Assembly: GCA_963714015.1 (NCBI GenBank)
Contig: OY970223.1
Coordinates: 1,408,001-1,472,000, forward strand
Source: Vulcanimicrobiota bacterium
GTDB taxonomy: Bacteria > Vulcanimicrobiota > Vulcanimicrobiia > Vulcanimicrobiales > Vulcanimicrobiaceae
DNA length: 64,000 nucleotides
Reading direction: 5' to 3'
Each line of letters opens with the position of its first letter. Position 1 is the first letter of the stretch. This document shows, in pieces, positions 10,546-42,992 of the stretch. Made by a program: the position numbers and the translations under genes. The notes beneath the pieces are model-generated. The model saw only the letters and a list, made by a program, of their open reading frames with translations. It was not told where the DNA came from and did no database searches.

Positions 10546-11946
10546 TCAGATTCAGCCGCCGGGCGAAAACAAGCCCGGATTCCTGGCCCGGTTCGGAAAG
10601 ATCGGCGCCATCGTATTGGGCCTGATTCTCGTCGCGCTCGGCTCGACCGTTGCGGGCTTTTCCGTCGCGCAGCATAAAACGCCGTGGCTGGTTATCGCAG
10701 GTATGGCCGTGAGGCCGCTTGCCCCCCCGCCGCAAGAACTCTTCCATCGGGATCACCTCATCGTACTGGTCGAGGGGCTGGACTACGACTACAACGACAA
10801 GGACGAAGAGTATTCGGCGCAATCCCGCAGCGACGTGATAATGGCGGTCAATTTGGATTTCCGCGACGACCGCGCGTACGAATTATCGGTGCCCCGCGAC
10901 ATGGATGCCGTGCTTCCCGACGGCCGGGAAACGAAGATCAACGAAGCCCAGGCCGAAGGCGGCGTTCATGAAGCCTCGGCAGTGATCTCCAAGTGGCTGG
11001 GCATCCCCGGATTCGATCGATACGTCATACTGCGGATCAACACCACCAAGGATCTCATCAACGCCATCGGCGGCGTCAACGTGGACGTCATGAACTCGCA
11101 TGCGTTGATGCACGACGGCGAGCCGAATGGTCCCATCGACTACGACGACGCATGGGGACATCTGAGCATTCACTTCAAACCGGGCATTCAGCACATGAAC
11201 GGCGATCAGGCCGTCAGCTATGCGCGGTTCCGCCACGACTTTTGCGGGGATCCGTGCCGCATTCAGCGCCAGCAGCAAGTGATTCACGCGTTCGTCGACA
11301 AGTTGAAAAACGACAAGATCAACACGCTCCTGCACCTGAATGACTTGGTCGGCGTATTCAATCGCGACGTACAGACGAATTTCTCGCAGCAGGAAGAGAT
11401 CAAGCTTGGCGTTGGCCTTTGCGGACATGCCTCCCGGCGGAATCAAGACCGATCAAGTTCCTTACGTTGCCGACAAGATCGTCTCGGACGGCGGCGACGT
11501 GATTATTCCGGATGAAGCAAAGAAAGAGCAGACTCGTTCAAAACATGCTGATCGATCCGCCCGTCCCGACGCCGTCGCCTGCAGCGGGGGATCTTGCCGC
11601 GATTGCTCCGGCGAGCGTGCGCGTCGACGTCGAGAACGGCTCGGCAGTAAGCGGCATGGCCAAGCGCGTGGCGGACCTGCTTCGCCGGCACGGCTTCGTG
11701 ATCGGAACGGTCGGAAATGCGGACGGCTCCGTCAGTACGACGGAACTTCACGAGCACACACGGATCGAGTACGCGGGGCTGAAGGTCCGCGAAGCGCTCG
11801 GGAAAGCGGCGAGCAACTTTCCGGTCATTGCAGACGTCCAGACATCGGCCACCGCCGCGCCGAGCGCTCAAACGAGCGACGTTACGGTAATCGTCGGATC
11901 CGATCTCGCCTCGATCCTCCAGCAACAGGCTTCGACCCAGCCGTGA
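10538..11946 (+). CDS. LCP (LytR-CpsA-Psr) family protein with C-terminal LytR_C domain; two apparent +1 frameshifts
   Basis: RSDVIM, SVPRD, KINEA, YARFRH and RIQRQQ motifs. Continues in shifted frames at about 11407 and 11532 into VDVENGS...V.VIVGSD. Confidence 0.85.
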
Positions 11947-12764
11947 ATCGCCGTTTGGCCGCTGCCGCGCTGATTCTCTGCGCGGCGATCGCTTACGCCG
12001 TTTATCGCGTCGTCACGCACGAACGCAACGTTCAGCCTGCAGTCGTCACGCCGCAGATGGATGCTCAGCAAGCGATTTCGCCTTCATTGCCCGGATACGT
12101 TAAGCGGCTGATAAACGAACGCGTATCGTACGGCGATCGATCCTCGCGCCCAAAGCTCATAGCGCTCACGTTCGATGACGGACCGTATCCGATCTACACG
12201 CCGCTGCTCCTCGACGAGTTGCACGAACTCGGCGTTCCAGGCACGTTTTTCTTAATCGGGCGAGACGCCCAACAGTGGCCCGAGTTGGCGCAGCGAATCG
12301 AGCGCGACGGAGACGAAGTTGCAAATCACACCTTGACGCACCCCAATCTCGATCAGGAGCGGGCCGCACAAGTTCGAAACGAAATCACGGGCGGTGCCGG
12401 TGCGCTCTATCCACTGGTGCGCGATCCCTCGGTTCGGAACATGTTCCGGCCGCCGCACGGACGTTACACCGTTCAAACGGTGCGCGTCGCGCAGTCGCTT
12501 GGATACCGGACCATTTTGTGGACGGACGATCCCGGTGACTGGCGAAGCGTCGCGCCGCAAGTGTTGCTCAAGCACATGGAGATTCACGCGACCGCGCCGG
12601 AGATCGTGCTGCTGCATAGCGGCAAGCTCGCGACGATTCAGATCCTGCCCCAGGTCGTGGCGCGTTTTCGTTCGGCGGGCTATCGCTTCGTGACCGTCCG
12701 GGAGCTGCTCGACGCGGTTCCGGTCGCACAAATCAACCACCCCGCCAAACACGCGCTGGAGTAA
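11943..12764 (+). CDS. Polysaccharide deacetylase (CE4/NodB)
   Basis: TFDDGP, NHTLTH, FRPPHG, D..DW and LLH motifs. GTGA overlap start and N-terminal anchor. Confidence 0.92.
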   Translation: MNRRLAAAALILCAAIAYAVYRVVTHERNVQPAVVTPQMDAQQAISPSLPGYVKRLINERVSYGDRSSRPKLIALTFDDGPYPIYTPLLLDELHELGVPGTFFLIGRDAQQWPELAQRIERDGDEVANHTLTHPNLDQERAAQVRNEITGGAGALYPLVRDPSVRNMFRPPHGRYTVQTVRVAQSLGYRTILWTDDPGDWRSVAPQVLLKHMEIHATAPEIVLLHSGKLATIQILPQVVARFRSAGYRFVTVRELLDAVPVAQINHPAKHALE

Positions 12765-12768
12765 GACG

Positions 12769-13017
12769 ATGCCCAGAGAGATCATCGACACGGAGTCCAG
12801 CCGGCCGCGATACGTCAGGCGGGTGGCTCTGTCGATCGCGCTGGCGGCGATCCTCTTGGCCGTACTGATCTACTTCGCGTACGCCGTGTGGGGCCACCGG
12901 GCGGTGGGGCAGCGCGGAGGGAATGCCTTCCCGGCGCGTGTATCCTGGCAACCGAGAATTCCGTCCCGGACCGGGTCTGCGGGACCATCCAAGGAGAATC
13001 CATGTTTCGTCGCCTGA
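12769..13017 (+). CDS. Small single-pass membrane protein
   Basis: GGAG SD, ATG 4 nt after the previous stop, and one strong hydrophobic helix. Confidence 0.55.
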   Translation: MPREIIDTESSRPRYVRRVALSIALAAILLAVLIYFAYAVWGHRAVGQRGGNAFPARVSWQPRIPSRTGSAGPSKENPCFVA

Positions 13018-14106
13018 CCCTCGGAATTTTGCTGCTCGCCGGCGTCACCGCGGCGGCTTGCAGCTCCAACGTGAACACGCCCTCGACCGGCGGCGTGCCC
13101 GGGGTCGGCCCGAACTTCACGACCAATACGATCTACGTCGCAAACACTTCGGTGAATGCGGTTTACATCTACACGCCCTCACCCAGCCCCAGCGCCACGC
13201 CGCAGTACCAGATCGCGGGAACGAGCACCGGTCTCATCGGCCCGATGTACATGGCGTTCAATTCTTCGCAGCGAGCTGTACGTTACCAACTACAACGCGG
13301 CAACGAAGCAGTCGGCGATCGAAATCTACGAACAGTTCGCGACCGGCGACGTTCTGCCGTTCAACGGTTTCTCGCTGCCTTCGGGCGACGTTCCCCGCGG
13401 CATAGCGTTTATGCCGGACGGCGACTTTGCCATCGCGGTCTCCGCAGTGCCGCAGACACTCTTCGACGCCGTCTACATTTACGACGACTCCAATTTGGCA
13501 GTGACGACCATCGGCGGATCCAGCACGCGCCTCGATGCACCGGTCGGCGTAGCCGTCGATGCAAACAGCAACGTCTATGCGGCCAACAGCGGCAACGGAT
13601 CCGTCACTGTGTACGCGCTGCCTTCGGCCTCGCCCACTCCCAGCGGATCCCCGTCTTCCTCGCCGACGCCGACTCCGACTCCCACGGTAAACCCGAGCGT
13701 AAGTCCGTCGCCGACGCCGATTCCAACGCCGGTTTCCGATAATCTGGCGCCTGTGCTCCTCATCACAAGCGGATTGACTTCACCGCAGGGCATTGTGCTG
13801 GACTCGAAGGGCGACCTATACGTTGCCGACTCGGGCAGCAGTTCCGTCGCGCCGTCGATCGACATCTTCAGGGCTCCGCTCTCGAACGGCATGCCGGTCT
13901 CGGTAAAGATCACCAGCAGCGCCCTTTCCTTCCCCACGGACGTGAAGGTCGATGCGAGCGGAACGATTTACGTGATGGACGCCGGCACATCGGCGGGGAC
14001 GAGCAAGCTGCTGATTTTCCATGCCGGCACGGCCGGTAACGCGACGCCGGCAACGACGGTAAAAATGCCGCAAGGCACCTCGACGGGGATCGCCTTATCC
14101 CCCTGA
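13002..14106 (+). CDS. Lipoprotein with NHL/beta-propeller repeats and Pro/Ser/Thr linker; one apparent +1 frameshift
   Basis: AAGGAG SD, lipobox AAA-C, repeated P.G.AVD..G..YV.D/N motifs. Frame switch at about 13273. Confidence 0.8.
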
Positions 14107-14156
14107 CCAGGAGCGGTGAACGCGCCGCGCTCGATCGCTTCGCACTGCTGACGCGC

Positions 14157-16280
14157 TTGCCGGCGCTCGCATCGCTCGAAGAAAAGAGCGCTGCGCTCGC
14201 CGACGCAGCGTATGCCACGACGCCGTGTTCCCGCGCGAGCGTCGTTGTCTTTGGTGAAGACCGCCCTTACTATGCGTGCGCACCCGGCGGTGAAGGGTTT
14301 CGGCTGCGTGACGAGTCCCTCGGACTGCGGCGTTTGCTCTTTCCGGCGCTCGCCAAATTCGCAACGCCGGGTGCGTTCTACGTGCCTCTCTCCTCGCTGC
14401 GTTCGCTGGCCGGAGTCTCGAACTATCGACCCAATGCCGATTTGCTGATTCTGCCGCTCGAAACGGGCGAGTCGCCGATCGGCGCGCTGGTCTTCGACGT
14501 CGATGCCGATCCCGGCGAACAGGCGGTGCGCGATCTGCGCATTTTTGCCGACGTTGCGGCTTGGATGATCGCCCACGAACGGGCGGTCTCGGCAGCGGAG
14601 CGTGAGGCCAAGCAGAGCGCTCTGCTGGCGACGATTAACGAACGTGCCCGCCGATCGCTGGACCGCCAGACGATTCTGGAAACGGTGGCGGAAGACGTGC
14701 GCGCCGCATTCAACGCGATGCGTTGCGCGGTTTTCGCGCGCGACTCGCAACAACCCGACGTCGTGCGCGTTATCGCAAGAGCCGAATCCAAGGGCTGCAA
14801 AACTTCCATCCCGGATTCAATACGAATGGGCACATCGTGGGTCGAGCGCGCCTTCGCCGGTTCGGTCGTCGGTCGCGAGGAAGTGAGTGCGGAAAATCCG
14901 CGCGATGCGCTGCTTCGCGAGTCCGGAGCCGCATCGGCACTGCTCGTGCCGCTTGTCGTCGAAGGCAAGGTGGAACATTCACTCGGACTGCACTTCTCCG
15001 CTCCCCATGCGTTCGACGAGATCGACATCGTCATGCTGCGATCGGTCGCCTCACACATCGGCCTGGCGCTGGCGAACGTTCAGTTATACGATCTGGAACG
15101 TTTGCGACGCGCGCGCGCAGAATCGCTGGAACGCGTCGTCCGGATGCTGCGCGACACGCAGACGATGGAAGAAGTGCTTCTCGTCTTTGCGGTCACCGTT
15201 TCTCATGAGGTGAGGTTGACGTGCGCGGTGTACGAGTTGGAGGGCAAAACCGCGACGCGAAAGGCCATGCGCGCCGTCGAGTCCGCGCGAAACGGTACTC
15301 CGCCCAGCGTGGAGGCCTCGTACTTGCTGCCGCTGCTCGAGCGTGAACATGCGGTTTTGAGCAGCGCCCTAGGGGGCCGGCTGCGCCAGCACCTGTTCGC
15401 CGGCTGCGAGGGAGTGCTCGCATCACTGAGCATCGACGGCAACCTCTGGGGTTTCGCCGTTTTTTCGGCGTCGGCCGGCACCTACGATTGGAATGACTCC
15501 GAGCGGCGCGTTTATTTTCGCATGCTCGCCTCGCATCTGGAACTAGCGCTTGCGGGCGCTCTCGGTTTCGAGCGGATACAACAACTGGCGCGAGCGCTCT
15601 CCGAAAGCAACGAGTTCAAAGACGATCTGCTCGCCATGCTCGCGCACGATTTCAAAGGCCCGCTGACCGTCATCTTGGGGTACGTCGAGTTACTCCTCGA
15701 GAACGCTCCGCCGGAAGTACGCGACGATTTGGAAACGATCTACGCGCAAACCAAACGTCTCGTTCGACTTTCGGAAGACGCCGTCGCTCTGGCGCAGACT
15801 CAGGCCGGGGGATTTTCGCTGGAGCGTTCGATACTCGACTTGCGCGAGGTTGTCGCGGCCAGCGTCAAAGCGCACAACCGCGGCGAGGATCGGATTGGGT
15901 TCGAAGCGGGATCGCAGCCGGTTCCCGTTTGGCTGGACGCCCCGCGCTTCAACCACGTGCTGGACAACTTGCTCATGAACGCGCTCAAGTATTCGCACGA
16001 CGAGGTAACGGTGCGGCTCAGCCAAGCCGGCGGCAACGCCACGCTCAGCATCGAGGACCGCGGCATCGGCATTCCCCCCGCGGAACTCGGCGCGGTCTTC
16101 GCGCGTTTCGGACGGGCGAGCAACGCCCGGCGCAAAGGCATTTCGGGGTCCGGCATCGGGCTGTACGTGAGCCGCAAGCTCGTAGAAGTCCACGGCGGCT
16201 CCATCGCCGTTCAGTCGGAAGAGGGGAAAGGGAGTACCTTCACCATCACCTTGCCTCTGGCGGGCGATCATCCGTCTTAA
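14157..16280 (+). CDS. Cytoplasmic GAF-domain sensor histidine kinase
   Basis: GAF-like segments, H-box AHDFKGPL, N-box NALKY, DRGIG and GSGIGL. The start may be CTG at 14103. Confidence 0.9.
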
Positions 16281-16345
16281 TTCGAGGTTCGGTCGCAGCC
16301 AGCAAGGCCGAGCGCCGGTTTAAGAGAGAACTGTACTAAAACACC

Positions 16346-18964
<2,619 letters not shown>

Positions 18965-19035
18965 CGGGAGTTCCTTAGTCCGTTCGGGCACATCGGACGG
19001 CCTCCAGGGCCGTTCTTCGTTTAAGCAGCTCCGGC

Positions 19036-19041
19036 TATGCT
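19036..19041 (+). promoter_or_regulatory. -10 element of a likely leaderless transcript
   Basis: TATGCT lies 6 nt before ATG 19048, with no SD. Confidence 0.4.
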
Positions 19042-19047
19042 AGAACG

Positions 19048-20214
19048 ATGAGGTGGTACGCCGCCGCGCTCGCCGCCGTCGTGATCTTCGCCCTGTTCGT
19101 GCTCGGTGCGGACGTGCTGCGCTCACCACGGTACACGCCCGACGGAGCAGCATACGCGCGTTTCGCGGCGCGCGCGAGCGGGCTTTCCGAGCGCGACTCC
19201 GCCCTTGCCGTGCGCACGTACTACGAACGCACCCCGCTGATGCGCGATGCGCGTTATCGGCCCCTCATCTTGCTCGATCCATCCGTCGCGTTCGAGCGGT
19301 CGCACATCTTCGCGAACCGTCTGCTCTATCCGTCGCTCGTTGCCGCTTTGCTGCCGTTCGCGGGCTTTTCGGCGTTGTTCGCTATCTCCGCAATAGCGTA
19401 CGTACTCTTCGGCGCGGCGCTGTTTTGGCTGCTCGCCCAATTCGGGCGTCTATGGTTGGCGGCGGTTTTGACGATTGCCGCACTCGTCGTTCCGGTCGTG
19501 CGCGAGGCCGCGGCGAGCGATCTCACGGACATGCTCGCAACGATGCTTTGGACGCTGGCTTTGGCGCTGTTGCTGCGGTCGATGCGAGATCGACGCGCGG
19601 TATGGCCGGCTGCGTTCGCAATAATCTCGACGCTGTTCGTTCTCACTAGGCCGGCGCCGTACATGATCGTCGTTCCGGCATTAGCCGCAGCGCTCTGCGC
19701 CGGGGCCTGGACATCGTTCGCAGCATCTCTTGCGAGCGCCGGAGTGTTCGTCGTTGCCGCTATTGCAACCCACGCGTTCGGGATGCGCGAACAACTGGAC
19801 TGGGTGTACCGGCATGCCGTCGCCGGGCGCTCGCCGAGGTTGAGCGAGGCAACGTGGTATCGTACCGCGCTGGCAAGGTCGCTGCGGGCCGTTGCGGCTG
19901 ATGCCGTTCGCGCAGTGATTCCGGTGCCGGCCCTGGTCGCGTGGTTCTTTGCATTACGCGCGCGCCGCGCGAGGGAGACCGCAATCGTTTTGGCTGCTGC
20001 AGCGGTGACCTGTCTTGCAGGCGTGCCGCTCAACCCCGTTCCCGATTCATTCGGGCGCGTTGTTTTCTTGCCGTTGGTGCCGGTTATAGCCGCGACGTTG
20101 GCTTGCGCAGCGGCTACGATTCCGGTTCGGAAGAAAATAGGTATTGAGGCGACGGATTCTGAAGCTGCGGAAATGGAACGTTTGCAAGATCGCCGTCCGG
20201 GTCTTGCGGGTTGA
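19048..20214 (+). CDS. Polytopic membrane protein, possibly a GT-C glycosyltransferase
   Basis: About 10 hydrophobic helices, a PD motif after TM1, and R.LYP, LTD and RP motifs. Confidence 0.6.
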   Translation: MRWYAAALAAVVIFALFVLGADVLRSPRYTPDGAAYARFAARASGLSERDSALAVRTYYERTPLMRDARYRPLILLDPSVAFERSHIFANRLLYPSLVAALLPFAGFSALFAISAIAYVLFGAALFWLLAQFGRLWLAAVLTIAALVVPVVREAAASDLTDMLATMLWTLALALLLRSMRDRRAVWPAAFAIISTLFVLTRPAPYMIVVPALAAALCAGAWTSFAASLASAGVFVVAAIATHAFGMREQLDWVYRHAVAGRSPRLSEATWYRTALARSLRAVAADAVRAVIPVPALVAWFFALRARRARETAIVLAAAAVTCLAGVPLNPVPDSFGRVVFLPLVPVIAATLACAAATIPVRKKIGIEATDSEAAEMERLQDRRPGLAG

Positions 20215-29480: not shown

Positions 29481-29527
29481 TGAGCATTCTCTTGTCCGTA
29501 CTTACGCTTTGCTATTAGGGGGATCGA

Positions 29528-32222
29528 ATGTCCGAGACGCTCGCGCCGAACGTAGCGGCCGCCGCGGTACAGAAGCCGATTTGGTTTTTTGAAGAAGGCG
29601 CCGCCGACATGAAAAACCTCCTCGGCGGAAAGGGCGCGGGCCTGGCCGAGATGACGCGCGCGGGTCTGCCGGTCCCTCCCGGTTTCACGATCACGACCGA
29701 AGCCTGCCTTCAGTACTACGCACTCGGTCGCCGCAACCCGCCCGGCCTGGACCACGCGGTCGAGGTCGCAATGCGCGAGCTCGAACGGCGGACCGGGAAG
29801 CATTTCGGCGATCCGAGCTGCCCCCTCTTGGTCTCCGTGCGCAGCGGCGCTCGCGTTTCGATGCCCGGAATGATGGACACGATTCTGAACCTCGGACTCA
29901 ACGACGCGACGGTTCTCGGTTTGGTCCACTTGACCGGCAACGAACGTTTTGCATGGGATGCTTACCGTCGCTTCATCATGATGTTTGCCGGGGTCGTCCT
30001 CGGCGTTGCAAAAGAGTGCTTCGAAGATCGTATCGAGGAAACGAAAGAGCGGATCGGCGTCACCGGGGACCCGGAGATCGATGCCGCCGCTTGGCGCGCG
30101 CTTGTCGACGAGTTCAAAGCCATCGTTCGGGAGAAGGCGGGGCGCGAGTTCCCGCAGGACGTGCACGAGCAATTGCAGCTCGCCATCAATGCGGTGTTCG
30201 ACTCCTGGAACTCCAAAAGGGCCGTGGACTATCGGCGCTTCAATAAAATTCCCGACGACTGGGGAACGGCCGTCAGCGTCGTGTCGATGGTGTTCGGAAA
30301 CATGGGCGACGACTCGGGCACGGGCGTGGCTTTTACGCGAAATCCCAACACCGGAGAGAAGGTACTCTTTGGTGAGTATCTTTGCAACGCGCAGGGCGAA
30401 GACGTCGTCGCCGGCATCCGCACGCCTGAGAAGATTGCGGACTTGGAGCGGACGCAGCCGGGAGTGTATCACCAGTTCGTCGACATCGCCCAGAAGCTCG
30501 AACGCCACTATCGCGAGATGCAGGATCTCGAATTCACCGTCGAGCGAGGCAAGCTCTACATGCTGCAGACGCGCACCGGCAAACGCAGTGCCGAGGCGGC
30601 CGTCAAGATTGCCATGGATTTGGTATCCGAGGGCATTATCGACAGACGTCAAGCGCTCGGACGCGTGAACGCAGACTGCGCTTGACCAACTCTTCCACGC
30701 GCGCATCGATCCGGCGCAGAAGTACGAAGCCGCCTGCAAAGGTCTAAATGCTTCGCCCGGAGCGGCGAGCGGTCAGGCCGTCTTCGATGCCGACACCGCC
30801 GAGGAATGGAGCAAGCGCGGCGAGGCGGTCGTGCTCGTGCGCCTGGAGACGACGCCCGACGACGTGCACGGGATGATCGCCGCACGCGGAGTGCTCACGG
30901 CAAAGGGAGGGGCAACTTCCCACGCGGCCGTCGTCGCGCGAGGCATGGGCAAGCCGTGCGTCGTCGGCTGCGAAGCGCTTCACATCGACCGGCGCACCGG
31001 CATAGCGCGTATCGGCGATCGACAGTTCACTCAGGGCGACTGGATCACGGTCGACGGAACCACGGGCAACGTGGTCATCGGACAATTGAAGTTGATCGAT
31101 CCGCCTTCGAAGCTGCCGGAGTGGCTTGCGACGTTTCTGAGCTGGGCAGACGAAGCGCGCACGATGGAGGTGTGGGCGAACGCCGACACTCCGCAAGACG
31201 CGCAAAAGGCACGTGAACTCGGTGCCGCGGGCATCGGGCTTTGCCGCACCGAGCACATGTTCATGCAGCAAGATCGGCTGCCGATCGTTCAGCAGATGAT
31301 TTTGGCAGGGACGCCGGAGGAACGGCAGCAAGCGCTCATCAAACTGTTGCCTTTCCAGCGCGAGGATTTTCTCGGAATTCTCGAAGCGATGCGCGGACTT
31401 CCGGTGACGATTCGGCTCCTGGACCCGCCCCTGCACGAGTTCTTGCCGTCGCTGGAAGCGCTGCTCGTAGAGACTACGGAACTGCGCGTGCGCGAGGGCG
31501 AAGAATCCCAAGCATATCTTCAGAAAATGCGTCTGCTGAAGCGCGTTCAGCAGCTGCACGAGCAAAATCCGATGCTGGGCTTGCGAGTTTGCCGTTTGGG
31601 AATCGTTTATCCCGAGATCTACGCTATGCAGGTACGCGCGATCTTCGAGGCGGCATGCGATCTGAAAAAGCGCGGCGTCGACGTGCGTCCCGAAGTGATG
31701 ATTCCAGGTGTCGGGACGGAGGAAGAGATGCGTTTCACCGCGCAGGCGGCCCGCGCGATCGCCGACACGGTTATTGCAGAAACGGGCATACACGTCGACT
31801 ACCACGTCGGAACGATGATCGAACTTCCCCGGGCCTGTATCGTGGCCGGCGAGCTCGCGCAATCGGGAGCCGAGTTCTTTTCGTTCGGCACGAACGATCT
31901 GACGCAGACGACATACGGCTACAGCCGCGACGATGCAGAAGGCTCGTTCATTCCACGCTATTTGGAAGAGCGGATTCTGAAAGAGGATCCGTTTCAAGTG
32001 CTCGATCGCCGCGGAGTCGGCACGCTGATGCAGGAGGCGGTGCGCCGCGGTCGCGACGTCAAACCGGAACTCAAGATCGGCATCTGCGGCGAACACGGCG
32101 GCGAGCCGTCCAGCGTGGCCTTTTGTCACAGCCTGAACCTCAATTACGTGTCGTGCTCGCCGTACCGCGTGCCGATTGCCAGGCTCGCGGCCGCGCAAGC
32201 TGCCATCGGCGCGCTTACCTAA
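29528..32222 (+). CDS. ppdK: Pyruvate phosphate dikinase; one apparent +1 frameshift at about 30675
   Basis: LGGKGAGLAEM, SVRSGA, QGEDVV, GGATSHAAVVARG, GLCRTEHMF and GICGEHGG motifs. Removing one base at 30675 gives NAAALDQLFHARID and fuses the two ORFs. Confidence 0.95.
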
Positions 32223-32821: not shown

Positions 32822-33110
32822 TCAGTCGCCATTATCCACATCCGGCTTGTCCCGAATACTCAATCCCAGTGAACGATGATACGCTTCATTCTCCGCAAGC
32901 GCCGATTCAATGTCATCGCGAACGCCTTCCTGGCTAACGAGTCTGTTTCAATCGTTCTCTGCTCTCGCGGAGCTCGCGTGCATAGCTTTCCAAAACTTCC
33001 CCGGGAACTTCGGGCGCATTGGGTGGACGGCTGACCCACGCCTCCATGGCATCGTGCGCCGCCTTCCCCCGGCCGCGCGCTGCGGCTAATGCATCTCGAT
33101 AGCTGCTCAT
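32822..33110 (-). CDS. Hypothetical helical protein of about 95 aa; one apparent +1 frameshift at about 32942
   Basis: Not in the ORF track. MSSYRDALAAARGRGKAAHDAMEAW...RERLKQ continues as LVSQEGVRDDIESALAENEAYHRSLG... once one base is removed. Confidence 0.5.
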
Positions 33111-33255: not shown

Positions 33256-33660
33256 GTGGGTCGACGCGTTAGGATTACCGACTCGAGCAGGGCGCGTTGG
33301 AAGAGTATCCTGGGATGGGGTGTTGCGGTGCTCGTAGTAGCAACCGTGGTGCACGACTCCGAGCAGACCAAATCTGAAGAAGCCCGCGAAGCCTGGGCCG
33401 GCGTGAACAACGTGTATACGCATCCAAGCAATCCAGTCAATGCTTATGCGCGCCCGGTGACCATAGCGTCGATTTCGGGCCTGTGGCTGAGCCTCGCCCT
33501 TGCTAGTCGTCCCATCGGTTCCGATCGACAGGAGTATGGGATCGTTTGGCAAGCCATTTACGTTCGGCATCACGGAGGTGGACCGGCTACTTGCGTGTGG
33601 ATTCACTATTCTTGGGGCTCCGGCTCGGAGAACAAAGACTGTTGTCGGCCCTCCGTTTAG
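33256..33660 (+). CDS. Hypothetical membrane-anchored protein
   Basis: Basic N-terminus, TM helix WKSILGWGVAVLVVATVV, Cys-containing C-terminus. Competes with a minus-strand ORF at 33214-33723. Confidence 0.4.
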   Translation: MGRRVRITDSSRARWKSILGWGVAVLVVATVVHDSEQTKSEEAREAWAGVNNVYTHPSNPVNAYARPVTIASISGLWLSLALASRPIGSDRQEYGIVWQAIYVRHHGGGPATCVWIHYSWGSGSENKDCCRPSV

Positions 33661-33733
33661 CATCGGCGACAACGGACCGGACACCATGTGTGGTGTAACC
33701 GGCCCTTCGCCTTTATGGCGCACTTTTTCCGCT

Positions 33734-36244
33734 CTACGCCCGATGTTTTGCGGTTTTACCGTAACGAGCTTGATAGGCGCGCATGTTCTGCGAATCGCGG
33801 ATGCTCAGAATCGCCGACCACGCACCCGATTGCACCGCCTGCTGCGAGTCGTTCTGCTCGGCCTGCTGCAGCGCCGGGATCGCCGCGGGATCGCCGAGTA
33901 TGCCGAGCGCGCGAGTCGCCGAGATTCGAGTCGTATTCAGCGGATCGTGGAGCACGATCTCGACCAATTCCGGTTCGGCGAGCTGCGGGTTCTTTGCATG
34001 CGCGGCAAGACGCGCAAGCGCGATGACCGCGCTGGAGCGTTCCCCCTCGGGCGTTCCATAAGCCGTTCTGCTTTTTATGAGCGGAAACGCCCGCATATCG
34101 CCGTAGGCGGCCAGTCCGCCCAATGCCGCAGCGGCAACCTCCTCGCGGAACGTGTGACGGTTTAGCGCCGCAACGAGCATGTTGTAAGCGCCGGAAGCCT
34201 TGAGTGAGGCGAGCGACTGGAGGGCCGTTCCGGCGACTGTCGGATCGGTGTCCGACACCATGGTCTTCAGGATTGCAACGACTCGCGCGTTTTTGGTCTT
34301 CAAGCTGCCGGCTGCGCCTTCGGCGGCGATGCGCACCCGTTTATCCTCGTCGCGAAGGCCGCTGTAGACGGCGGCGGCGTCGTCGAATTGCGCCGATGTG
34401 TCCAGGGCGTACGAGCGGACGCCGTAGTACGGATCCGACCGCACGACGCTCGCAACCGCGGACATGGCGGTCGCGCGATCGCTGCCTTTGGCATCGGCAA
34501 ACTTTGCCAGCTGGTCGATTGCCCACATGCGATCGCCGGCGTGTTTGGCATTCCCCGCTTGGTACGCAAGCTCGGCGAGGGATTTGTGGAACGTGAGTTC
34601 CCTGATGATGTTGTCGTTGGGATCGAAGAGCACCATCTGCGGCTTGGAAGTGACGCCGTCGATGACGATGGCCTGGTGGTTTTGTGCGATGATCGGCTGG
34701 ATACTCTTCATTTGTCCGCCGAAGTACGCTTCGATTACGACCGGCATCCGGAACGGCTTCCCATCGTGGTTCTTTTGCGAGACCTCTAACGTGAGGGTTC
34801 CGGCCTTTGCGTCGTACTTCTGCTTGACGAGGTAATTGGGGTACGCCGCGCGGTAGAACCATTCGTTCTCGAACCAGTCGAGATTCGTTCCGAGCGATTT
34901 GTCTATTGCGTCAAAGAACTGATGCGTGTCGGCGGTCTTGTATTGATATGCACTCAGATAGTCGTGCAGCGCTTTGAAGAAGCGCTGGTCGCCGAACATG
35001 TAGCGCAGCATATGCAGCACTTCGCCGGGCCGGGGGTATCCGCTGGAGTCGAACAGATCGAGCGGGTCGTTATAGACGTAATCGACGATAGGACGAAAAT
35101 AGTCTTGCGTCTCGCCAAAGTACGACTGCTGCGCGAAGTAGCGCTCCTGTTCGAATTCCGCTTCACCGAAGTGCTTTTCGCTCCAGAGCTCCTGAAAATA
35201 CGTCGCGTACCCTTCGTTGATCCACGTGTTCGACCAATCCGACATAGTGACGTCGTCGCCCCACCACTGATGGGCGAGCTCGTGAGCGACCAGGCCGTCG
35301 CAGGGCGATTCCAGGTTTTGGACGGGCAGATGGATTGCACGATCCGTCTGAATCGTGGCGGAGGCGTTTTCCATTCCGCCGTAAGTGAAGCGCTCCGCCG
35401 TGGTCTGATCGTACTTTTCCCACGGGAACTTGATGCCGATAGTGTTCTGAAAGAACGCGACGATGTCTTTGGTGTTCCCGAAGCAAAGCGCGTTGAGGTT
35501 GGCGACCGGGGGCTGAACGTACGAGTCGACGGGCATGCCGTTCAGCGAGGTATGGTGCTCCGAGAGCGGACCTGCGGCAAAGGCTATCAGGTAGGTCGAT
35601 TTGGGATGCGGTGAATTCCAATCCCAAGTCTCGCCGGTTGTACCGGACTTGTGCGATTTCAAATACCCGTTCGCAACGACGGTCCACCCGTGTGGAACCG
35701 TAACGACCAGTTCGCTTGGAGTTTTCTGGTTCGGCTGGTCCCACGTCGGGAACCAGCGGCGATTGTCGATCATTTCGCCTTGCGACCAGATCTCCGGCGT
35801 AACGTCCGGATATCCGCGGTCCGGGCGGATGAAGTAAATTCCGCGTTGCGGCTGCACGGAGTACACGAAATCCACGGCCAGGTTCTTCCCGGCCGATGCA
35901 GGCTGCGCCACGCCGACGTTGATGAACTGGTGCGCGGTATCGATCGTGTACGCGGCTGGTTTTCCATCGACCGTCACGGACGAATACTTGATTCCGAGCG
36001 TATTGAAAGGCAGCGTTCGCAGCCCGGCCCGTTTCGGTTCGACGATCGCCGTTTCGTGGCCGTACACGATCCCGCGATCGAAATCGAATCTTACTCGAAT
36101 GATCGAGTTCGCAAAGCGGTACGGCGCATAGGCGGTGGGATGGAAGTACGCGTGCCCGCGTCCGAACGGCCGGGGAAGCGGCGTGGGCGGCGGAGGCGCT
36201 TTCGGGGCGGCGGATGCGGCGATGAGCGCGAGTGCAGTAAGCAT
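33734..36244 (-). CDS. Exported M1 family aminopeptidase with HEAT repeats
   Basis: Signal peptide, GGMEN, HELAHQWWGD...NEG zinc motif and C-terminal HEAT-like repeats. Confidence 0.92.
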   Translation of the reverse strand: MLTALALIAASAAPKAPPPPTPLPRPFGRGHAYFHPTAYAPYRFANSIIRVRFDFDRGIVYGHETAIVEPKRAGLRTLPFNTLGIKYSSVTVDGKPAAYTIDTAHQFINVGVAQPASAGKNLAVDFVYSVQPQRGIYFIRPDRGYPDVTPEIWSQGEMIDNRRWFPTWDQPNQKTPSELVVTVPHGWTVVANGYLKSHKSGTTGETWDWNSPHPKSTYLIAFAAGPLSEHHTSLNGMPVDSYVQPPVANLNALCFGNTKDIVAFFQNTIGIKFPWEKYDQTTAERFTYGGMENASATIQTDRAIHLPVQNLESPCDGLVAHELAHQWWGDDVTMSDWSNTWINEGYATYFQELWSEKHFGEAEFEQERYFAQQSYFGETQDYFRPIVDYVYNDPLDLFDSSGYPRPGEVLHMLRYMFGDQRFFKALHDYLSAYQYKTADTHQFFDAIDKSLGTNLDWFENEWFYRAAYPNYLVKQKYDAKAGTLTLEVSQKNHDGKPFRMPVVIEAYFGGQMKSIQPIIAQNHQAIVIDGVTSKPQMVLFDPNDNIIRELTFHKSLAELAYQAGNAKHAGDRMWAIDQLAKFADAKGSDRATAMSAVASVVRSDPYYGVRSYALDTSAQFDDAAAVYSGLRDEDKRVRIAAEGAAGSLKTKNARVVAILKTMVSDTDPTVAGTALQSLASLKASGAYNMLVAALNRHTFREEVAAAALGGLAAYGDMRAFPLIKSRTAYGTPEGERSSAVIALARLAAHAKNPQLAEPELVEIVLHDPLNTTRISATRALGILGDPAAIPALQQAEQNDSQQAVQSGAWSAILSIRDSQNMRAYQARYGKTAKHRA

Positions 36245-36301
36245 GACGTCAAACTGCGCCGCAGGATGCGCTCTGCCCTGGCTTCACGAAAGCCGTTCGT
36301 C

Positions 36302-37426
36302 ATGCCGCTGCCCGACTTTGCGCTCGAGTCCTATTTCGGCGTCTGGGAATTCAAAGCGCGCTACCATCTGGCGGCGTCGGATGCAGAAAGCATGGCACTG
36401 GCCGATCTGCTGGACCTTGCCGCCGGCGACGAGCGCGCGCGATGGAATTCGCTGCGCCTGGGCTATATCGAATCGGAGGGCATGCCCGAACTCCGGCGGG
36501 CGATTGCGCAGACGTACGAAACGATCGCCCCGCAAGACGTCGTGTGCTTCGCGGGAGCCGAAGAAGGGTTGTATTGTGCGATGCATGCAGTGCTGCGTCG
36601 CGACGACCATGCAATCGTCATGGTCCCAAACTACCAATCGACCGAGACGGTTCCGCGATCCTTGTGCGAGGTCAGCGCGGTCGCGCTGCGGCCCGAATCC
36701 GGTTGGCGTCTCGACGTTTCCGAGATTCGAGCGCAACTGCGGCCGAATACGCGGCTGATCGCGGTGAACTTTCCGAACAATCCCACGGGTGCGATCGCCG
36801 ATAGCGGATCGTTTTTGGACCTTATCGATCTGTGCCGCGCGCGCGGCCTTTACTTATTGAGCGACGAAGTCTACCGGGGCGTGGAGCGCGATCCGGCCAA
36901 AAGACTCCCGCAGGCGGCGGATCGTTACGAACGCGCGCTCTCCCTCAACGTGATGTCGAAGGCGTACGGCTTGCCCGGCCTGCGCGTCGGCTGGATCGCT
37001 TCACGCGATCGGGATTTGCTGAGCCAAGCAATCAAAGTCAAACACTATCTCTCCATCTGCAACTCGGCTCCGGCGGAAGTCCTGGCCACGATTGCATTGA
37101 AAGCGGCCGATCGCGTATTGGACCGAAACCGCCGGATCTGTACCGAGAATCTTTCAAAACTCGACGCATTTTTCGAGCGGTGGGCGGATCGATTCCACTG
37201 GTACGACCCGGACGGCGGCTGCGTTGCGTATCCGGCCTATCTGTCAGGCGACGTGGAAGATTTTTGCACGCGGTTGGTCGAGGACGCCGGCGTGCTGCTG
37301 GTGCCGGCATCAAAATTTGCATCGCAGCTTTGTGCCGCGCCCGCGAACCGTTTTCGAATCGGTTACGGCCGCCTCGGCATCGACCAGGCGCTGGCGGCAT
37401 TCGACGCATTCCTGTCGAGATCGTGA
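36302..37426 (+). CDS. PLP-dependent aminotransferase class I/II
   Basis: NFPNNPTG, DEVY and MSKAYGLPGLRVGW motifs. True start at ATG 36302 (MPLPDFALE). Confidence 0.92.
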   Translation: MPLPDFALESYFGVWEFKARYHLAASDAESMALADLLDLAAGDERARWNSLRLGYIESEGMPELRRAIAQTYETIAPQDVVCFAGAEEGLYCAMHAVLRRDDHAIVMVPNYQSTETVPRSLCEVSAVALRPESGWRLDVSEIRAQLRPNTRLIAVNFPNNPTGAIADSGSFLDLIDLCRARGLYLLSDEVYRGVERDPAKRLPQAADRYERALSLNVMSKAYGLPGLRVGWIASRDRDLLSQAIKVKHYLSICNSAPAEVLATIALKAADRVLDRNRRICTENLSKLDAFFERWADRFHWYDPDGGCVAYPAYLSGDVEDFCTRLVEDAGVLLVPASKFASQLCAAPANRFRIGYGRLGIDQALAAFDAFLSRS

Positions 37427-37442
37427 ACGTCCGTGAGGCTGG

Positions 37443-37964
37443 TCAACGACTCCTGAACGAAGCCGAGGATCTCCGCAGAATATCGTCTATAATCGGAGTC
37501 TTCGCCTGGGCGTAGTCGTTGCGATCCGCCCAATCCAGCTCGACCAAGCGCCGCTTCTCTGCTTCGTACGTTTCGCGTTGACGGGCGTCGGCTCGCAACG
37601 CGTCTCGAAACTTGAGATGCCGCTCGAAGTCCGGACCGCCGGCCGGCCAGAGATGCACGTGAACGTCCGCAGCGGGCGTGCGGTACATGCGATGGTTCGG
37701 CTCGTCGACTCCCAGCTCGTAACCGGCGGCCGTCAACGCCTCGAATACCGCGCTGCTTTTGACGTCGCTCACCGCGATTGCGACGTCCACGATTGGTTTT
37801 GCCGCCAATCCGGGCACCGCAGTGGACCCGACGTGTTCGATTTGCACCGCCACCGCACCGAGCGCTGCCGCCAAGCGTTCGCGCTGCGCGTCAAATCGCA
37901 TTACCCATGCCGGGTCGTACTCGAAAAGAACGACTTTCACGACGCTGAAGCAACCTCGCGGCAA
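37443..37964 (-). CDS. GrpB/UPF0157 family protein
   Basis: YDPAW, IEHVGSTAVPGLAAKPIVD, FRDALR and Y...K motifs. Start probably near 37940. Confidence 0.9.
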   Translation of the reverse strand: MPRGCFSVVKVVLFEYDPAWVMRFDAQRERLAAALGAVAVQIEHVGSTAVPGLAAKPIVDVAIAVSDVKSSAVFEALTAAGYELGVDEPNHRMYRTPAADVHVHLWPAGGPDFERHLKFRDALRADARQRETYEAEKRRLVELDWADRNDYAQAKTPIIDDILRRSSASFRSR

Positions 37965-39145
37965 ATGCGCCGGGCCTCGTCGGCGTCCACCTTAGCGCGC
38001 TCGACGAACAATTTTCGCCAATACGCTTTACCGGCGATGCGTTCGATCAAATCCGATGCTTCACGGGCATCCACGATGGCACCCGACGCCGTACCGACCC
38101 AAACGGTGCGGCTGCCGGAATCGAGTTGCAAAGGAAGACGATGGATTAACTGCGATTGTTCGTCGCTCCAGACGGCATCCCCATAACGTTCCCGCAGGGC
38201 CGCCTCGCAACGCTCGTAGATGCTCAAGTCGTGCTCGGCGTTGAACTCGGCTGCGACGGCGTACAGCCGAATGCGTTCGCGTAATGCCCGAGCAGCTTCG
38301 GAAGGCGCTTCGCGCACGTCATTCAGCACGCGAAAATCATCCCAGCGCAGAAATTCTTCGACCGGGTCGAGCGCGTGCGGGTTCGGCCACAGTTCGGTTA
38401 GCACGCGCTGAAGTATTCGTTCGAACATCCTCGTGGTGTGATGGAAGTAGACCGATGCGAACATCATGTATCGGGCCAGCACGAAGGACTCGAGCGCGAC
38501 CAGGCCCCGGCGATCGATGCCCAACACCAGGCGGTCGCCGAAGTCAAAGATCCGCAGCGAGCCGACGAGCTGGTCGACGTCGTACCGCCCGCTCGAAACG
38601 CCGGTAAAATATGCATCGCGCTGTAGATAGTCCATGCGGTCTGCGTCCAGATTCGGACCGCTGACAATCTCGCTGAGCACAGGATGCTTCGCGTGCGCGT
38701 CGGCCAATATGAGGTCGAGCAGATCGCCGGGATCGACTTCGAGCGCCTCGATGTGGCGCCGCATCTCCGGCAGATTCAGGATCTCGCGCGTGCGAGCTTC
38801 GTGCCGCACACCGAGCACGGCTTCGCATGCGTGACTGAACGGACCGTGGCCCACGTCGTGTAAGATGAGGGCGGCGCGAACCAGACGGCGCTGCGCAGCG
38901 ACGTCGTCCTCGCCATGAAAAAATTCCCTGCCGTGCCGGACGAGCTCGTCGAAAACGCGCGAACCCATCGCAAGCGCGCCCAAAGAGTGGCTGAAGCGCG
39001 AATGCTCCGCCGACGGAAACGCCAGATACGCAAGTCCAAGTTGCCGAAGCCGCCGGAGACGCTGCAGTACCGTCGAATCCAACAGGGCTGCCTCTTGCGG
39101 CGTGAGCTCGATGAAGCGATGGATTGGATCGTAAATCCGTTTCAT
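37937..39145 (-). CDS. HD-domain phosphohydrolase (SAMHD1/dNTPase-like)
   Basis: DPIH, QRLRRLRQLG, HSRFSHSLG, LHDVGHGPFSH, DADRMDYL.RD and VYFH motifs. Confidence 0.92.
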   Translation of the reverse strand: MKRIYDPIHRFIELTPQEAALLDSTVLQRLRRLRQLGLAYLAFPSAEHSRFSHSLGALAMGSRVFDELVRHGREFFHGEDDVAAQRRLVRAALILHDVGHGPFSHACEAVLGVRHEARTREILNLPEMRRHIEALEVDPGDLLDLILADAHAKHPVLSEIVSGPNLDADRMDYLQRDAYFTGVSSGRYDVDQLVGSLRIFDFGDRLVLGIDRRGLVALESFVLARYMMFASVYFHHTTRMFERILQRVLTELWPNPHALDPVEEFLRWDDFRVLNDVREAPSEAARALRERIRLYAVAAEFNAEHDLSIYERCEAALRERYGDAVWSDEQSQLIHRLPLQLDSGSRTVWVGTASGAIVDAREASDLIERIAGKAYWRKLFVERAKVDADEARRICREVASAS

Positions 39146-39189
39146 CCGCGGACTCTCTTCCGACCGCGGCGAAGAGGCTACCTGCCATA

Positions 39190-40980
39190 ATGAGATTCGA
39201 CCAGGCTGCCCTTCGTGAGATTCACGCTCGCACGGACATCGCGAGCTTCATCGGTTCGTACGTGCCGCTGCGCAAACGCGGCAAGGATCTCGTCGGCCTG
39301 TGTCCGTTTCACGCCGAGAAGACGCCCTCGTTCCACGTGCACCCGGATACCGGGTTCTTCAAATGCTTCGGGTGCGGCGCCGGCGGCGACGTCATCACGT
39401 TCGTCTGTAAACTGGAGAACCTGGCGTTCCCGGAAGCGGCGAGGATGCTGGCTCAGCGGGCGGGCATCGAGCTCGAGCCCGAGAATCCCCAGGCCGCCCG
39501 CGTTCGCAGCGAACGCGAAACGATCTACGAAGCCAACGAAATCGCGGCGGCGTTTTTCGAACGCATGTTGCGGGGGACGCAAGGAGCAGCCGCACGCGCG
39601 TACTGCGATCGGCGCGGAATCGGCCAGGCGAGCATCGAGAAGTTTCATCTGGGTTATGCACCTGACGAGTGGAGCGCACTGGCCGCCGAACTGCGCGAGC
39701 ATGGAGTCGAACCGGAGGTCGCGGTCAAAGCGGGACTGCTCAAACGCGGCGAACGGGGATTCTACGATTTCTATCGCGATCGCCTCATGGTTCCGACGTA
39801 CTCGACCACCGGTGAAGTGATAGCGTTCGGCGGCCGCGCACTCGGCGACCACGAGCCCAAATACTTGAACACTTCGACGACGCCGGTCTATACGAAGGGC
39901 GAGCATCTGTACGCGCTCAACATTGCGCGCAGGGCGGCCGCGCGAGACGAGCGGCTCATCGTCGTTGAAGGCTATCTCGATTGCATTGCGCTGCATCAAG
40001 CCGGATTTGAGAACGCCGTCGCCTCGCTCGGCACCGCCTTTACCGAAAAGCAGGCGCGAGAATTGCGAAAGTACGCAACGGGTGTATTCCTGTGCTTCGA
40101 CGGGGACGCCGCCGGAAATAGCGCAGCCGACAAGGCTATCGAAATCGCCACGCACGAAATCGAAAACGCCGGCTCGGCCGTGCGGATCGTATCGCTTCCC
40201 CCGGGAAGCGATCCGGACACCTATGTTCGCGAGAAGGGCGTTCAAGCGTTCAAGGAGTTGCTTGAATCCGCGAAGCCTGCAATTGAAGTGCGTTTGGAGC
40301 GTGAGGCCGCCCGCCTGGAACGCGGTTTCGAATCGCCGGCCGCTGTGGCTCCCGCGGCGGAGGCGCTGATCCGCAGAATGACGCCGCAGGTCGAATGGGA
40401 TCGGTGGCGTGTATGGATTGCGTCACGACTGAAGGTCAACGTAAACGACCTACGGAATAGCCGCTTTCTCGCAAGCGCGGCAAACTTTGCACCGCGTTCG
40501 TCCGGCGTCGCACCTGCGACTCGGCATCTTCCTCAGAACGTCCGGCCCTCGTCTTTCGAACGCGAAGCGCTTGCCGTTATGTTGGAAGAGCCTGCTTTAG
40601 TGCTCGAATACCGCGAACGCATCCCGGTCGATCGCTTTCTCGAGGGGCCATACCGCCGGATGTATGCCGTGCTCGTCGAGAATGCGGCAAAGATTCTGCG
40701 CCCGGCGGATGTTTTTGCGCTGTTTGCGGACGATAACGAGAGCGTGGGGCTGCTCACCTCGCTCGGCCGGCCCGACCGCAGTTCAACGGTCCGTTACGAG
40801 GGCTCCGAGCAGCGCAGGGCTCACCTCGAGCGAGTGGTCGAAAGACTGCAACTCGACGAGCAAAGGCGGCGTTATCAGGAATTGTCCCTGCGCATCGACG
40901 AGATCCTCTCGTCAGGTCAGCGCGTCAGCGGCGAGCTTCGCGACGAGTTTGACGCGCTGGTTGCCAAACTCAAACGGTAA
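39190..40980 (+). CDS. dnaG: DNA primase
   Basis: CPFH...CFGC zinc finger, KYLN, VEGYLD and FDGD.AG TOPRIM motifs. Confidence 0.97.
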   Translation: MRFDQAALREIHARTDIASFIGSYVPLRKRGKDLVGLCPFHAEKTPSFHVHPDTGFFKCFGCGAGGDVITFVCKLENLAFPEAARMLAQRAGIELEPENPQAARVRSERETIYEANEIAAAFFERMLRGTQGAAARAYCDRRGIGQASIEKFHLGYAPDEWSALAAELREHGVEPEVAVKAGLLKRGERGFYDFYRDRLMVPTYSTTGEVIAFGGRALGDHEPKYLNTSTTPVYTKGEHLYALNIARRAAARDERLIVVEGYLDCIALHQAGFENAVASLGTAFTEKQARELRKYATGVFLCFDGDAAGNSAADKAIEIATHEIENAGSAVRIVSLPPGSDPDTYVREKGVQAFKELLESAKPAIEVRLEREAARLERGFESPAAVAPAAEALIRRMTPQVEWDRWRVWIASRLKVNVNDLRNSRFLASAANFAPRSSGVAPATRHLPQNVRPSSFEREALAVMLEEPALVLEYRERIPVDRFLEGPYRRMYAVLVENAAKILRPADVFALFADDNESVGLLTSLGRPDRSSTVRYEGSEQRRAHLERVVERLQLDEQRRRYQELSLRIDEILSSGQRVSGELRDEFDALVAKLKR

Positions 40981-41041
40981 TAGGGGACGATAAGGGTCCC
41001 ACGAAAAGTTCCCCGCGCAGAAAGGGGGTGAGAGAAAAAGA

Positions 41042-42235
41042 ATGGCCAGAAAGAAAACGGCGGCAAGCGCGAACGGCGCAACCACGACCGCGGAGGCGGC
41101 TCCGGCTACGGTCGAGGAGCTGAAGAAAAAGCTTTTAGAACGCGGCAAGAAAAACGGCTCGGTCACGCTCGACGACATCAATACGGAAGTCGGGCGACTA
41201 GCCGAGACGCGAGAAGAATTAAACGAGGCCGAAATCTTCGAGGACCTCATGACCGAGCTCAATGCAGCGGGTGTCGAGGTCGTCGAGGATGCCGAAGAAG
41301 ACAAAGCCGAGGCTGAAGGAGAGCCCGAGCAGTCGATTCCGGCGGGTTTGGCGCTTGACGATCCGGTCCGCATGTATCTCAAAGAGATCGGCCGCGTTCC
41401 CCTGCTGTCCATGGAAGACGAGAAAAATCTCGCGATGCGCATCGAAGCCGGCGAGAAAGAACTTACTAAGAACGGCTCTGCCAATCAGGTCATCGTCGTT
41501 GAGGGCGAGGAAGCCAAACGTCAGCTGACGGAGGCGAACCTGCGCTTGGTGGTCTCGATTGCGAAAAAGTACGTCGGCCGCGGCATGCTCTTTTTGGACT
41601 TGATTCAAGAAGGCAATCTCGGACTGATTCGCGCCGTCGAAAAATTCGACTATCGCAAGGGCTACAAATTCTCGACGTACGCCACCTGGTGGATCCGCCA
41701 AGCGATCACGCGCGCTTTGGCCGATCAAGCGCGTACGATCCGAATCCCCGTGCATATGGTCGAGACGATTAACCGTCTGATCAAGATTTCAAGGCAGTTG
41801 CTGCAAGAGCTCGGCCGCGATCCGTCGGTGGAAGAGATTGCTGCCGAAATGGGCCTCACTCCCGAGAAGGTTCGCGAGGTCATCAAGATCAGCCAGGAGC
41901 CGATCTCGCTAGAGACGCCTATCGGCGAAGAAGAAGATTCGCATTTGGGCGACTTCATCGAGGATCAGGAAGCGGTGGCTCCCGCGGAAGCGGCATCCGT
42001 CATGCTCCTCAAAGAAAAGATGCAGGACGTGCTGCAAAACCTCACCGAGCGCGAGCGCAAAGTGCTGGTGCTGCGTTTCGGCTTGGAAGACGGCCACCAG
42101 CGCACCCTCGAAGAAGTCGGCCAGGAGTTCGGCGTCACGCGCGAACGGATCCGCCAAATCGAGGCTAAAGCGCTGCGAAAGCTGCGGCATCCCTCGCGCG
42201 GCAAAGCGCTCAAAGACTACTGGTCTAACGAGTAA
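41042..42235 (+). CDS. rpoD: Primary sigma factor SigA/RpoD
   Basis: [36 protein letters not shown] and TRERIRQIE motifs. Follows dnaG. Confidence 0.98.
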
Positions 42236-42289
42236 GGTCACGCCGGGCCGAGCGAAGGCCCTCAAAACGCCGGCGGCCAAGCAGGCACC

Positions 42290-42992
42290 ATGACGAGTTT
42301 CTTATCGGCGTCCGTTTTTGCCGTGCTGATCCTGCAGTTTTCTCAAATAGTGGCAGCGCCCACGTCGGGCGGGCCCGCGAACACGATTCCGGATGGAATC
42401 ACCGTGCGCGGAAACGGGAGTGCAACCATGGCAGCGGACGAGGCCACCGTCACCCTTCGCTTGTTTGCCAAGAATAACGCACTGATTATCGATCAAGAAG
42501 CGCTGCAGCCGTTTGTCGATGCGCTCGTGGCGGCCGGAGTCACGCGCTCGGACATCACGATGCCCATGTACTTGACGGGCGCAGCCAAGACGAATAACGC
42601 CGTCATTACCGCGGTTATACACAATCCGACGGTGACCACAATCCGGAACGGCATGACGACGCTCACAACGCGATTCAATCCGGATTCGCAAATTCTGGTG
42701 AACGGCGTAGAGGTACGGTTGAGCGCGGAGGACTGCACCACCGCCCGAAAGCAAGCTCAAAGCTGCGGCGATTCGCCAGGCTCGCGGCGCCGCGCAATCG
42801 GTCGCAAGCGCGCTCGGCGTTCACGTAGGCTCCGTTCTTGCCGCCGATTTCCAAGCACCGTTTGAAAACGGTCCGGGCTGCAATTTCGCCTACAACCTCG
42901 GCCCTTACCAGAACGAACTGTTCAGCACGCCGGAACAGTATCTACAGGTCCGCGTTTCCAGCTACGTGACGATCCGCTACGCGATTAAGTAA
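42290..42992 (+). CDS. Secreted SIMPL/DUF541-like protein; one apparent +1 frameshift at about 42761
   Basis: Signal peptide and ITVRGNGSA. The shifted frame gives AAAIRQARGAAQSVASALGVHVG...VTIRYAIK*. Confidence 0.7.

Follow-up and report, generated by a model that had tools for sequence, protein, structure and literature searches.

Six frameshifts in a 64,000-nucleotide stretch of DNA from an uncultured Vulcanimicrobiota bacterium (hereafter the window, G000:C1:1408001-1472000) are quite probably errors of a long-read consensus at the tetranucleotide AGCT, for which methylation of AGCT by an enzyme of the PF01555 family is the most likely source. The genome to which the window belongs (G000) is a single contig of 3,562,638 bases with about 61% G+C, and an initial annotation made from the letters of the window had placed a single-base insertion at AGCT in each of the six cases. 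It seems most likely that this Eremiobacterota/Vulcanimicrobiota bacterium, of the Baltobacteraceae kind, methylates AGCT; the modified word would disturb base calling, so that reads often gain or lose a base in or beside it, and the wrong version would then win the consensus at about 1-1.5% of AGCT sites. As the enzyme, the best candidate is a beta-class methyltransferase of family PF01555 that appears to be solitary; it is encoded at G000:1044659-1045633 and is probably similar in type to M.Mma5219II.

Frameshifts at AGCT in the genome and its relatives

The closest genomes compared are only about 78% identical to G000 in ppdK DNA; therefore, comparisons were made at the protein or codon level. 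As the protein reference we used G017, a single-contig relative of another genus (2,276,742 bases), whose 2,198 non-overlapping open reading frames (ORFs) of at least 80 amino acids were searched against G000 with tblastn, and a junction was defined as adjacent high-scoring segment pairs (HSPs) of one query lying in different frames, with duplicates dropped. To locate repair sites, each single-base deletion in turn was scored against the reference protein, and a repair was called near-best when its score fell no more than 4 units short of the best; identical intervals displaced by 15-30 bases inside the same genes served as controls. A frameshift in the query genome leaves a wrong-frame tail that matches the target elsewhere and fakes a junction of the opposite sign. 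For this reason a strict filter was applied, in which both target frames had to be closed by stops; it retained 132/177 insertions and 29/40 deletions (161 +1/-1 breaks in 1.97 Mb), and 128 of the strict insertions, pinned to at most 6 positions, form the localised set. The reference G017 is itself error-laden, a trap for frameshift detection with one metagenome-assembled genome (MAG) against another. The method scores frameshifts only, so that substitutions at AGCT may be equally common or commoner. Marker-gene completeness of G000 is 89.6%, versus 95-97% for most relatives.

In the 1.97 Mb of G000 covered by homology we found 229 frameshift junctions (177 +1, 40 -1, 8 +2 and 4 -2). The best repair lay in or adjoining AGCT for 50/128 strict insertions (39%), 34 of them inside the word, compared with 28/1511 control intervals (1.9%; Fisher p = 4e-40), and when near-best repairs were admitted the figures rose to 82/128 (64%) and 90/1504 (6.0%; Fisher p = 4e-56). 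AGCT also ranked first of the 256 4-mers, with 41 occurrences observed against 2.9 expected in the unfiltered set. The initial annotation had named AGCT enrichment among genome-wide indels as the check on its idea, and the enrichment is there, 14- to 20-fold over controls. Its picture nevertheless needs two corrections: it described insertions only, but deletions cluster at AGCT too (17/29 versus 58/348, or 16.7%, in controls), and it placed all six frameshifts at AGCT, a context that genome-wide accounts for only about 39-64% of insertions. At least a third of the insertions are ordinary errors away from AGCT, and no second motif was enriched among the 46 residual insertions. With about 5,387 intact AGCT words in the covered 1.97 Mb, about 1-1.5% of sites are affected.

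Could AGCT-like words simply be common enough to account for any six loosely localised frameshifts? The initial annotation had allowed five positions per AGCT, some of its sites were loosely localised, and the control intervals do reach 6%. The excess of 39-64% over control rates of 1.9-6.0%, together with the replication in G017 described below (p = 6e-21), leaves chance with a negligible probability; the 4-mer ranking, the controls and the Fisher tests have already refuted it. Three further ideas were tried and rejected. Homopolymer slippage does not fit, as 82/128 sites lie in no run and only 10/128 in runs of at least 3; widening the motif, for instance to CAGCTG, leaves no more than a mild preference for C at -1 (34/66 versus a 34% background); and strand asymmetry is slight, with central A 13 times and central T 9 times on the + strand.

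The identity of the broken genes bears on whether the frameshifts are real mutations. For 25 broken genes, the G017 homologues were named by NCBIfam; the list includes rpoB, rpoC, gyrA, dnaA, dnaB, valS, uvrC, ruvB and typA, as well as relA/spoT, glyA, lpdA, purH and uppP. The first six of these, from rpoB to valS, are each found at one locus, split into two pieces whose frames differ and whose identity to G017 is 70-89%; the flanks carry no other decay, and no intact second copy of any of the six was found in G000. A cell in which rpoB, rpoC, gyrA, dnaA, dnaB and valS are broken is not viable. Since single-copy essential genes are broken while their flanks are undecayed, we may conclude that the breaks are most likely consensus errors or minority variants and not fixed scars or pseudogenes. 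The proposal that the affected genes of the window are intact in biology gains support in the same way, because breaks of the same class occur in these six single-copy genes.

The competing possibility is that the mutations are real, either blunt AG^CT cuts that end joining sealed with the addition of one base or pseudogenes of the usual kind. In its favor, 30 of the 50 AGCT-linked strict insertions lie exactly at the AG^CT center (inserted bases on the coding strand: A 14, T 8, G 4 and C 4). However, 16 of the 50 lie immediately beside the word and 4 fall between A and G or between C and T; end-joining scars would account neither for the insertions outside the motif nor for the deletions that cluster there as well. 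The broken essential genes, each at a single locus, and flanks that are 70-89% identical to relatives without further decay speak against real mutations of any kind. The scar alternative, which the initial annotation had already ranked as the less likely, fails on the essential single-copy genes; it is close to refuted, and we regard real mutations in general as very improbable.

The same signature is present in other assemblies. In the reciprocal search, with G000 ORFs against G017 (loci L009-L122), 135 junctions were found in G017, 86 of them +1. Strict insertions in G017 had their best repair in or adjoining AGCT in 27/67 cases (40%, versus 2.4% in controls) and a near-best repair there in 38/67 (versus 7.5%; p = 6e-21), and 10/18 strict deletions lay at AGCT versus 14.6% in controls. 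In a further relative, G007, the one insertion that could be localised in the ppdK locus (L006) breaks the gene at cgagTCtg, that is, AG[T]CT (1/1). Two records from different megabase-contig assemblies, L176 and L187, which are 75% identical to each other in the region compared (L176:2391-2475, L187:2301-2420), both read GAAGAGTCTGCAT, in which AG^CT holds a surplus T; the site belongs to the gene that lies upstream of the candidate PF01555 methyltransferase and was established by direct DNA alignment. At this GAAGAGTCTGCAT site 17 other relatives are one base shorter (12 with AG-CT, 4 with AGT-T and 1 with CA-ACT). Because the two records share the extra base and the 17 relatives lack it, the same AGCT was struck twice independently, and an independent break of one homologous site in two species is a further argument against real mutations. 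An all-against-all scan of 80 methyltransferase loci was noisy owing to frameshifts in the queries, and only this DNA-verified site was used.

A candidate AGCT methyltransferase

The initial annotation had suggested that the responsible enzyme is encoded outside the window and that an m4C (N4-methylcytosine) or m5C (5-methylcytosine) methyltransferase might be found in the genome. A search of G000 returned two PF00145 C5 methyltransferases, three PF01555 N4/N6 methyltransferases (one of them frameshifted) and one Dam-like PF02086 enzyme. Only two of these have counterparts in G017: one is encoded at 1044659-1045633, outside the window, and belongs to PF01555 (72% identical), and the other is the Dam-like enzyme encoded at 17290-18168 (62%). 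An AGCT-methylating enzyme encoded outside the window is thus plausible from gene content. The frameshift-split PF01555 gene (G000:C1:429628-430426; L127, L128) carries an SPPY motif and has no counterpart in G017.

The initial annotation had thought of an AluI-type enzyme. M.AluI modifies the same target word (AGCT, m5C), and the two PF00145 genes of G000 are of the C5 class; unlike the AGCT errors, however, counterparts of these genes are lacking from G017 and G007, in which no PF00145 match was found, and the G000 C5 proteins gave no tblastn match in G017. Since G017 and G007 have AGCT errors and no C5 counterpart, a C5 enzyme of the M.AluI type cannot be the shared cause and was rejected. 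The likely enzyme is instead a beta-class N4/N6 methyltransferase that resembles the AGCT m4C family.

The candidate at 1044659-1045633 matches PF01555 at 2e-35 over positions 1-219 of 221. Its translation shows DPPYG and FAGGGS, which we take to be the (D/S)PPY motif IV and the FxGxG S-adenosylmethionine (SAM) motif, respectively. Orthologues are present in G001, G002, G003, G007, G008, G009, G013 and G017, and none was found in the other 22 relatives searched with that query. The neighbors of the gene differ between G000 and G017, and no restriction-enzyme family was found among them in either genome, which is weak evidence because such enzymes often escape Pfam.

Outside the phylum, the candidate has a full-length identity of 55-61% to its closest relatives, which come from Methanohalophilus, Methanoregula, Methanoculleus, Anaerolineae and Sumerlaeota. 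The type as a whole keeps 55-61% identity (L204-L253) across Eremiobacterota, Methanomicrobiales, Methanohalophilus, Anaerolineae, Sumerlaeota and Bacteroidota, and such identity across domains points to a wide horizontal spread of one enzyme type. Compared with the proteins of Methanohalophilus profundi, M. euhalobius and Methanohalophilus sp. RSK, the candidate shows 56-58% identity over the full length; this homologue is the only PF01555 match over the cut-off in 2/3 of these genomes and is 92-100% conserved in 6/11 species of the genus.

Enzymes with the required target are known from the literature. M.Mma5219II of Methanohalophilus mahii DSM 5219 is listed as a type II AGCT m4C enzyme (PMC11033074; PMC6329791, Tables 3 and 4); M.Msp273III, M.Nca01I, M.NspBD3I and M.TarMY3I are tabled with AGCT too, and M.MhuIV is named in the text (PMC11033074). 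Hiraoka et al. reported a thaumarchaeal MAG in which 96% of AGCT sites carried m4C and the enzyme was 45.9% identical to M.Mma5219II (PMC6329791, Tables 3 and 4). The candidate resembles the AGCT m4C enzymes M.Mma5219II, M.MhuIV, M.Nca01I and M.NspBD3I in being a type II enzyme of PF01555 and in its identity to the Methanohalophilus protein; it differs from them in that its motif IV is DPPY, its host is an Eremiobacterota bacterium and not an archaeon, and its specificity is a prediction only. Thaumarchaea also have pairs of AGCT and GATC enzymes (PMC11033074, PMC6329791), and G000 likewise encodes a Dam-like enzyme. On these homologies, the PF01555 protein as AGCT methyltransferase is a well-founded lead and not a result.

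The enzyme is common to the affected genomes. Among those that encode it, AGCT-linked insertions number 50/128 in G000, 27/67 in G017 and 1/1 in G007. Two relatives served as controls: G011, with no match to PF01555, PF02086 or PF00145, and G006, with none to PF01555. In the single-contig G011 (400 kb, of which 255 kb were covered), 0/5 strict and 0/7 unfiltered insertions were at AGCT, while 3/7 lay in short homopolymer runs (AAAA, TTT and CCCAAA), and in G006 (200 kb, 107 kb covered) no confirmed break was found. The contrast between G011 and G000 gave Fisher p = 0.16 with the best repairs and 0.007 with the near-best ones. This contrast is suggestive and not decisive; over the five genomes the direction agrees with a link to enzyme content, but the controls are few.

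This contrast also bears on the remaining rival explanation, according to which the platform or polisher adds a base to AGCT-like words irrespective of modification and the methyltransferase is present by coincidence. All the affected assemblies (G000, G017, L176 and L187) have megabase contigs and could share a pipeline, and the errors known to follow modification, taken up below, are mostly of another kind, both of which would suit such a base-caller quirk. The enzyme-free control genomes G011 and G006 speak against it, as does the p value of 0.007 for G011 against G000, and no generic AGCT insertion error was found in the searched literature as far as its text was available. We therefore judge an artefact independent of modification to be unlikely, and we favor AGCT modification, with the PF01555 enzyme as its probable agent, as the cause of the errors.

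Several points weigh against this preferred explanation. Between 36 and 61% of the insertions lie elsewhere than at AGCT. The negative control comprises a small sample, 5-7 insertions in G011 and none in G006, and sequencing or polishing may have differed for these two genomes. DPPY, the motif IV of the candidate, is more usual in N6-adenine than in N4-cytosine enzymes, and the identity to Methanohalophilus was measured on proteins from congeners of M. mahii. The Dam-like PF02086 methyltransferase is common to G000 (G000:C1:17290-18168, - strand) and G017 (two copies, G017:C1:346080-346874 and 337635-338372), occurs also in G007 and was not found in G011; it could be the agent as well. The 4-mer tables show no error enrichment at GATC.

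A final difficulty concerns the kind of error. Base modifications are known to cause motif-specific nanopore read errors that persist in assemblies (PMC11610603, Genome Res 2024). The errors described there resemble ours in being tied to a short methylation-type motif, carried into the consensus, dependent on the organism and distinct from homopolymer errors; they differ in being mainly substitutions, C-to-T and G-to-A, whereas ours are frameshifting single-base indels with insertions prevailing by about 4:1. No description of AGCT-specific insertion errors, or of insertion-dominated indel errors at a 4mC-type motif, was found in the searched literature, as far as its text was available.

Frameshift sites in the window

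The positions of the frameshifts in the window are collected in Table 1. All letters that the initial annotation had given are present in the sequence, and its observation of six single-base insertions at AGCT is confirmed: the net change relative to homologues is +1 in 6/6 cases and the best repair is in or adjoining AGCT in 5/6, the small minus-strand ORF being compatible with AGCT but ambiguous. With the 6% control rate and assuming independence, six of six at AGCT would occur by chance with a probability of about 5e-8. The window also holds 172 intact AGCT words; therefore, most sites are unaffected, as had been pointed out.

Table 1. Frameshift sites in the window, with positions counted from its first letter
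Feature	Position	Strand	Letters given initially	Context and change
LCP gene, insertion 1	11401..11407	+	AAGCTT at 11403	gatCAAGCTTg, net +1
LCP gene, insertion 2	11530..11534	+	AGACT at 11530-11534	AG[A]CT, net +1
NHL-repeat lipoprotein gene, insertion	13270..13277	+	GAGCT at 13273-13277	within cgcAGCGAGCT, net +1
ppdK (pyruvate, phosphate dikinase; pieces 29519-30673 and 30675-32177)	30673..30677	+	AGACT at 30673-30677	AG[A]CT, net +1
Small minus-strand ORF (homology 32841-33110), insertion	32940..32944	-	AGTCT at 32940-32944	inside coding-strand AAACAGACTC, net +1
SIMPL-family gene (42290 to about 42990), insertion	42759..42764	+	AAAGCT at 42759-42764	surplus A in AAA directly 5' of GCT
Gene at window start, -1 deletion	112..114	-		gatGAG^ttt on the coding strand; loss of the C from AGCT would fit
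Small gene, net +2 junction	44090..44102	+		HSPs stop at 44090 and restart at 44102 in another frame

In ppdK, ORFs of 7 relatives switch frame between 30673 and 30675/30678 with no residue lost (tblastn), and when scored against the G017 protein the sole best deletion is 30675, the very A that had been marked as the extra base in CAG[A]CTG. In the SIMPL-family gene the protein HSPs of G001 and G007 switch frame at 42759-42763 with a net +1, and the best deletion, 42759-42761, restores KQAQAAAIRQAR.

At the first LCP insertion, the frame of ORF 10538-11515 gives way to that of 11340-12764. The base named initially, T at 11407, belongs to the near-best set, but the best deletion is 11401-11403 (gatCAAgctt), and AGCT remains at the junction after either repair. 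At the second, the best deletion is 11531-11532 (gcaGActcg); for both LCP insertions, the bases named initially fall within the best or near-best repair sets. The second insertion drops out at the strict filter, since by chance no stop closes the middle frame. However, the 137-amino-acid LCP piece downstream of it (11533-11943) lies in open frames of 440-605 amino acids in 18 relatives, as opposed to a 147-amino-acid frame here, which shows that this sequence does contain the break. The reading frame of the central LCP fragment (11340-12764, + strand) is open for 474 codons, well past the LCP homology; long open wrong frames are common in the G+C-rich G000 and may mislead an ORF-based reading.

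In the NHL-repeat lipoprotein gene, whose reference is weak (36-48% identity), the best deletions are 13270, 13274 and 13275, and the G at 13273 that had been taken as the extra base of [G]AGCT is in the near-best set but not among the best. For the small minus-strand ORF, blastn against a same-genus relative (L173) gave 200/270 identical positions with a single gap, GAAACAGACTCG versus GAAA-AGGCTCA. Removal of the C yields KRLV, which fits the KRLI of the relative slightly better, and removal of the A yields KQLV and creates AGCT.

Two further breaks were found in the window. The deletion at 112-114 passes the strict filter, with flanks 65 and 81% identical to G017, and the +2 junction of the small gene is the last entry of Table 1.

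Consequences for genomes of these bacteria

Motif-linked long-read errors and AGCT m4C enzymes have both been described already, and the finding is not a new kind of biology. What it means for the data is that the "complete" G000 and at least one relative carry well over a hundred frameshifts that are in all likelihood false, core genes included. Pseudogene counts, completeness scores and gene calls of these uncultured soil bacteria are thereby distorted in a predictable, motif-specific and correctable manner. For biology, the error pattern serves as a cost-free indicator of probable AGCT methylation in a phylum of which hardly any members have been cultured, and it singles out a candidate enzyme.

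More tentatively, and with slightly less than even confidence, we propose that a subclade of the Baltobacteraceae has a solitary, horizontally shared AGCT enzyme, that m4C on every AGCT would be a lineage-wide epigenetic signal, and that the insertion-type error signature which it would leave with present-day long-read base callers is one not described before. If this is true, the enzyme would be about 57-60% identical to those of methanogenic archaea, Anaerolineae and Sumerlaeota, and its mark would break about 1% of AGCT sites, those in rpoB and rpoC included, in public complete MAGs.

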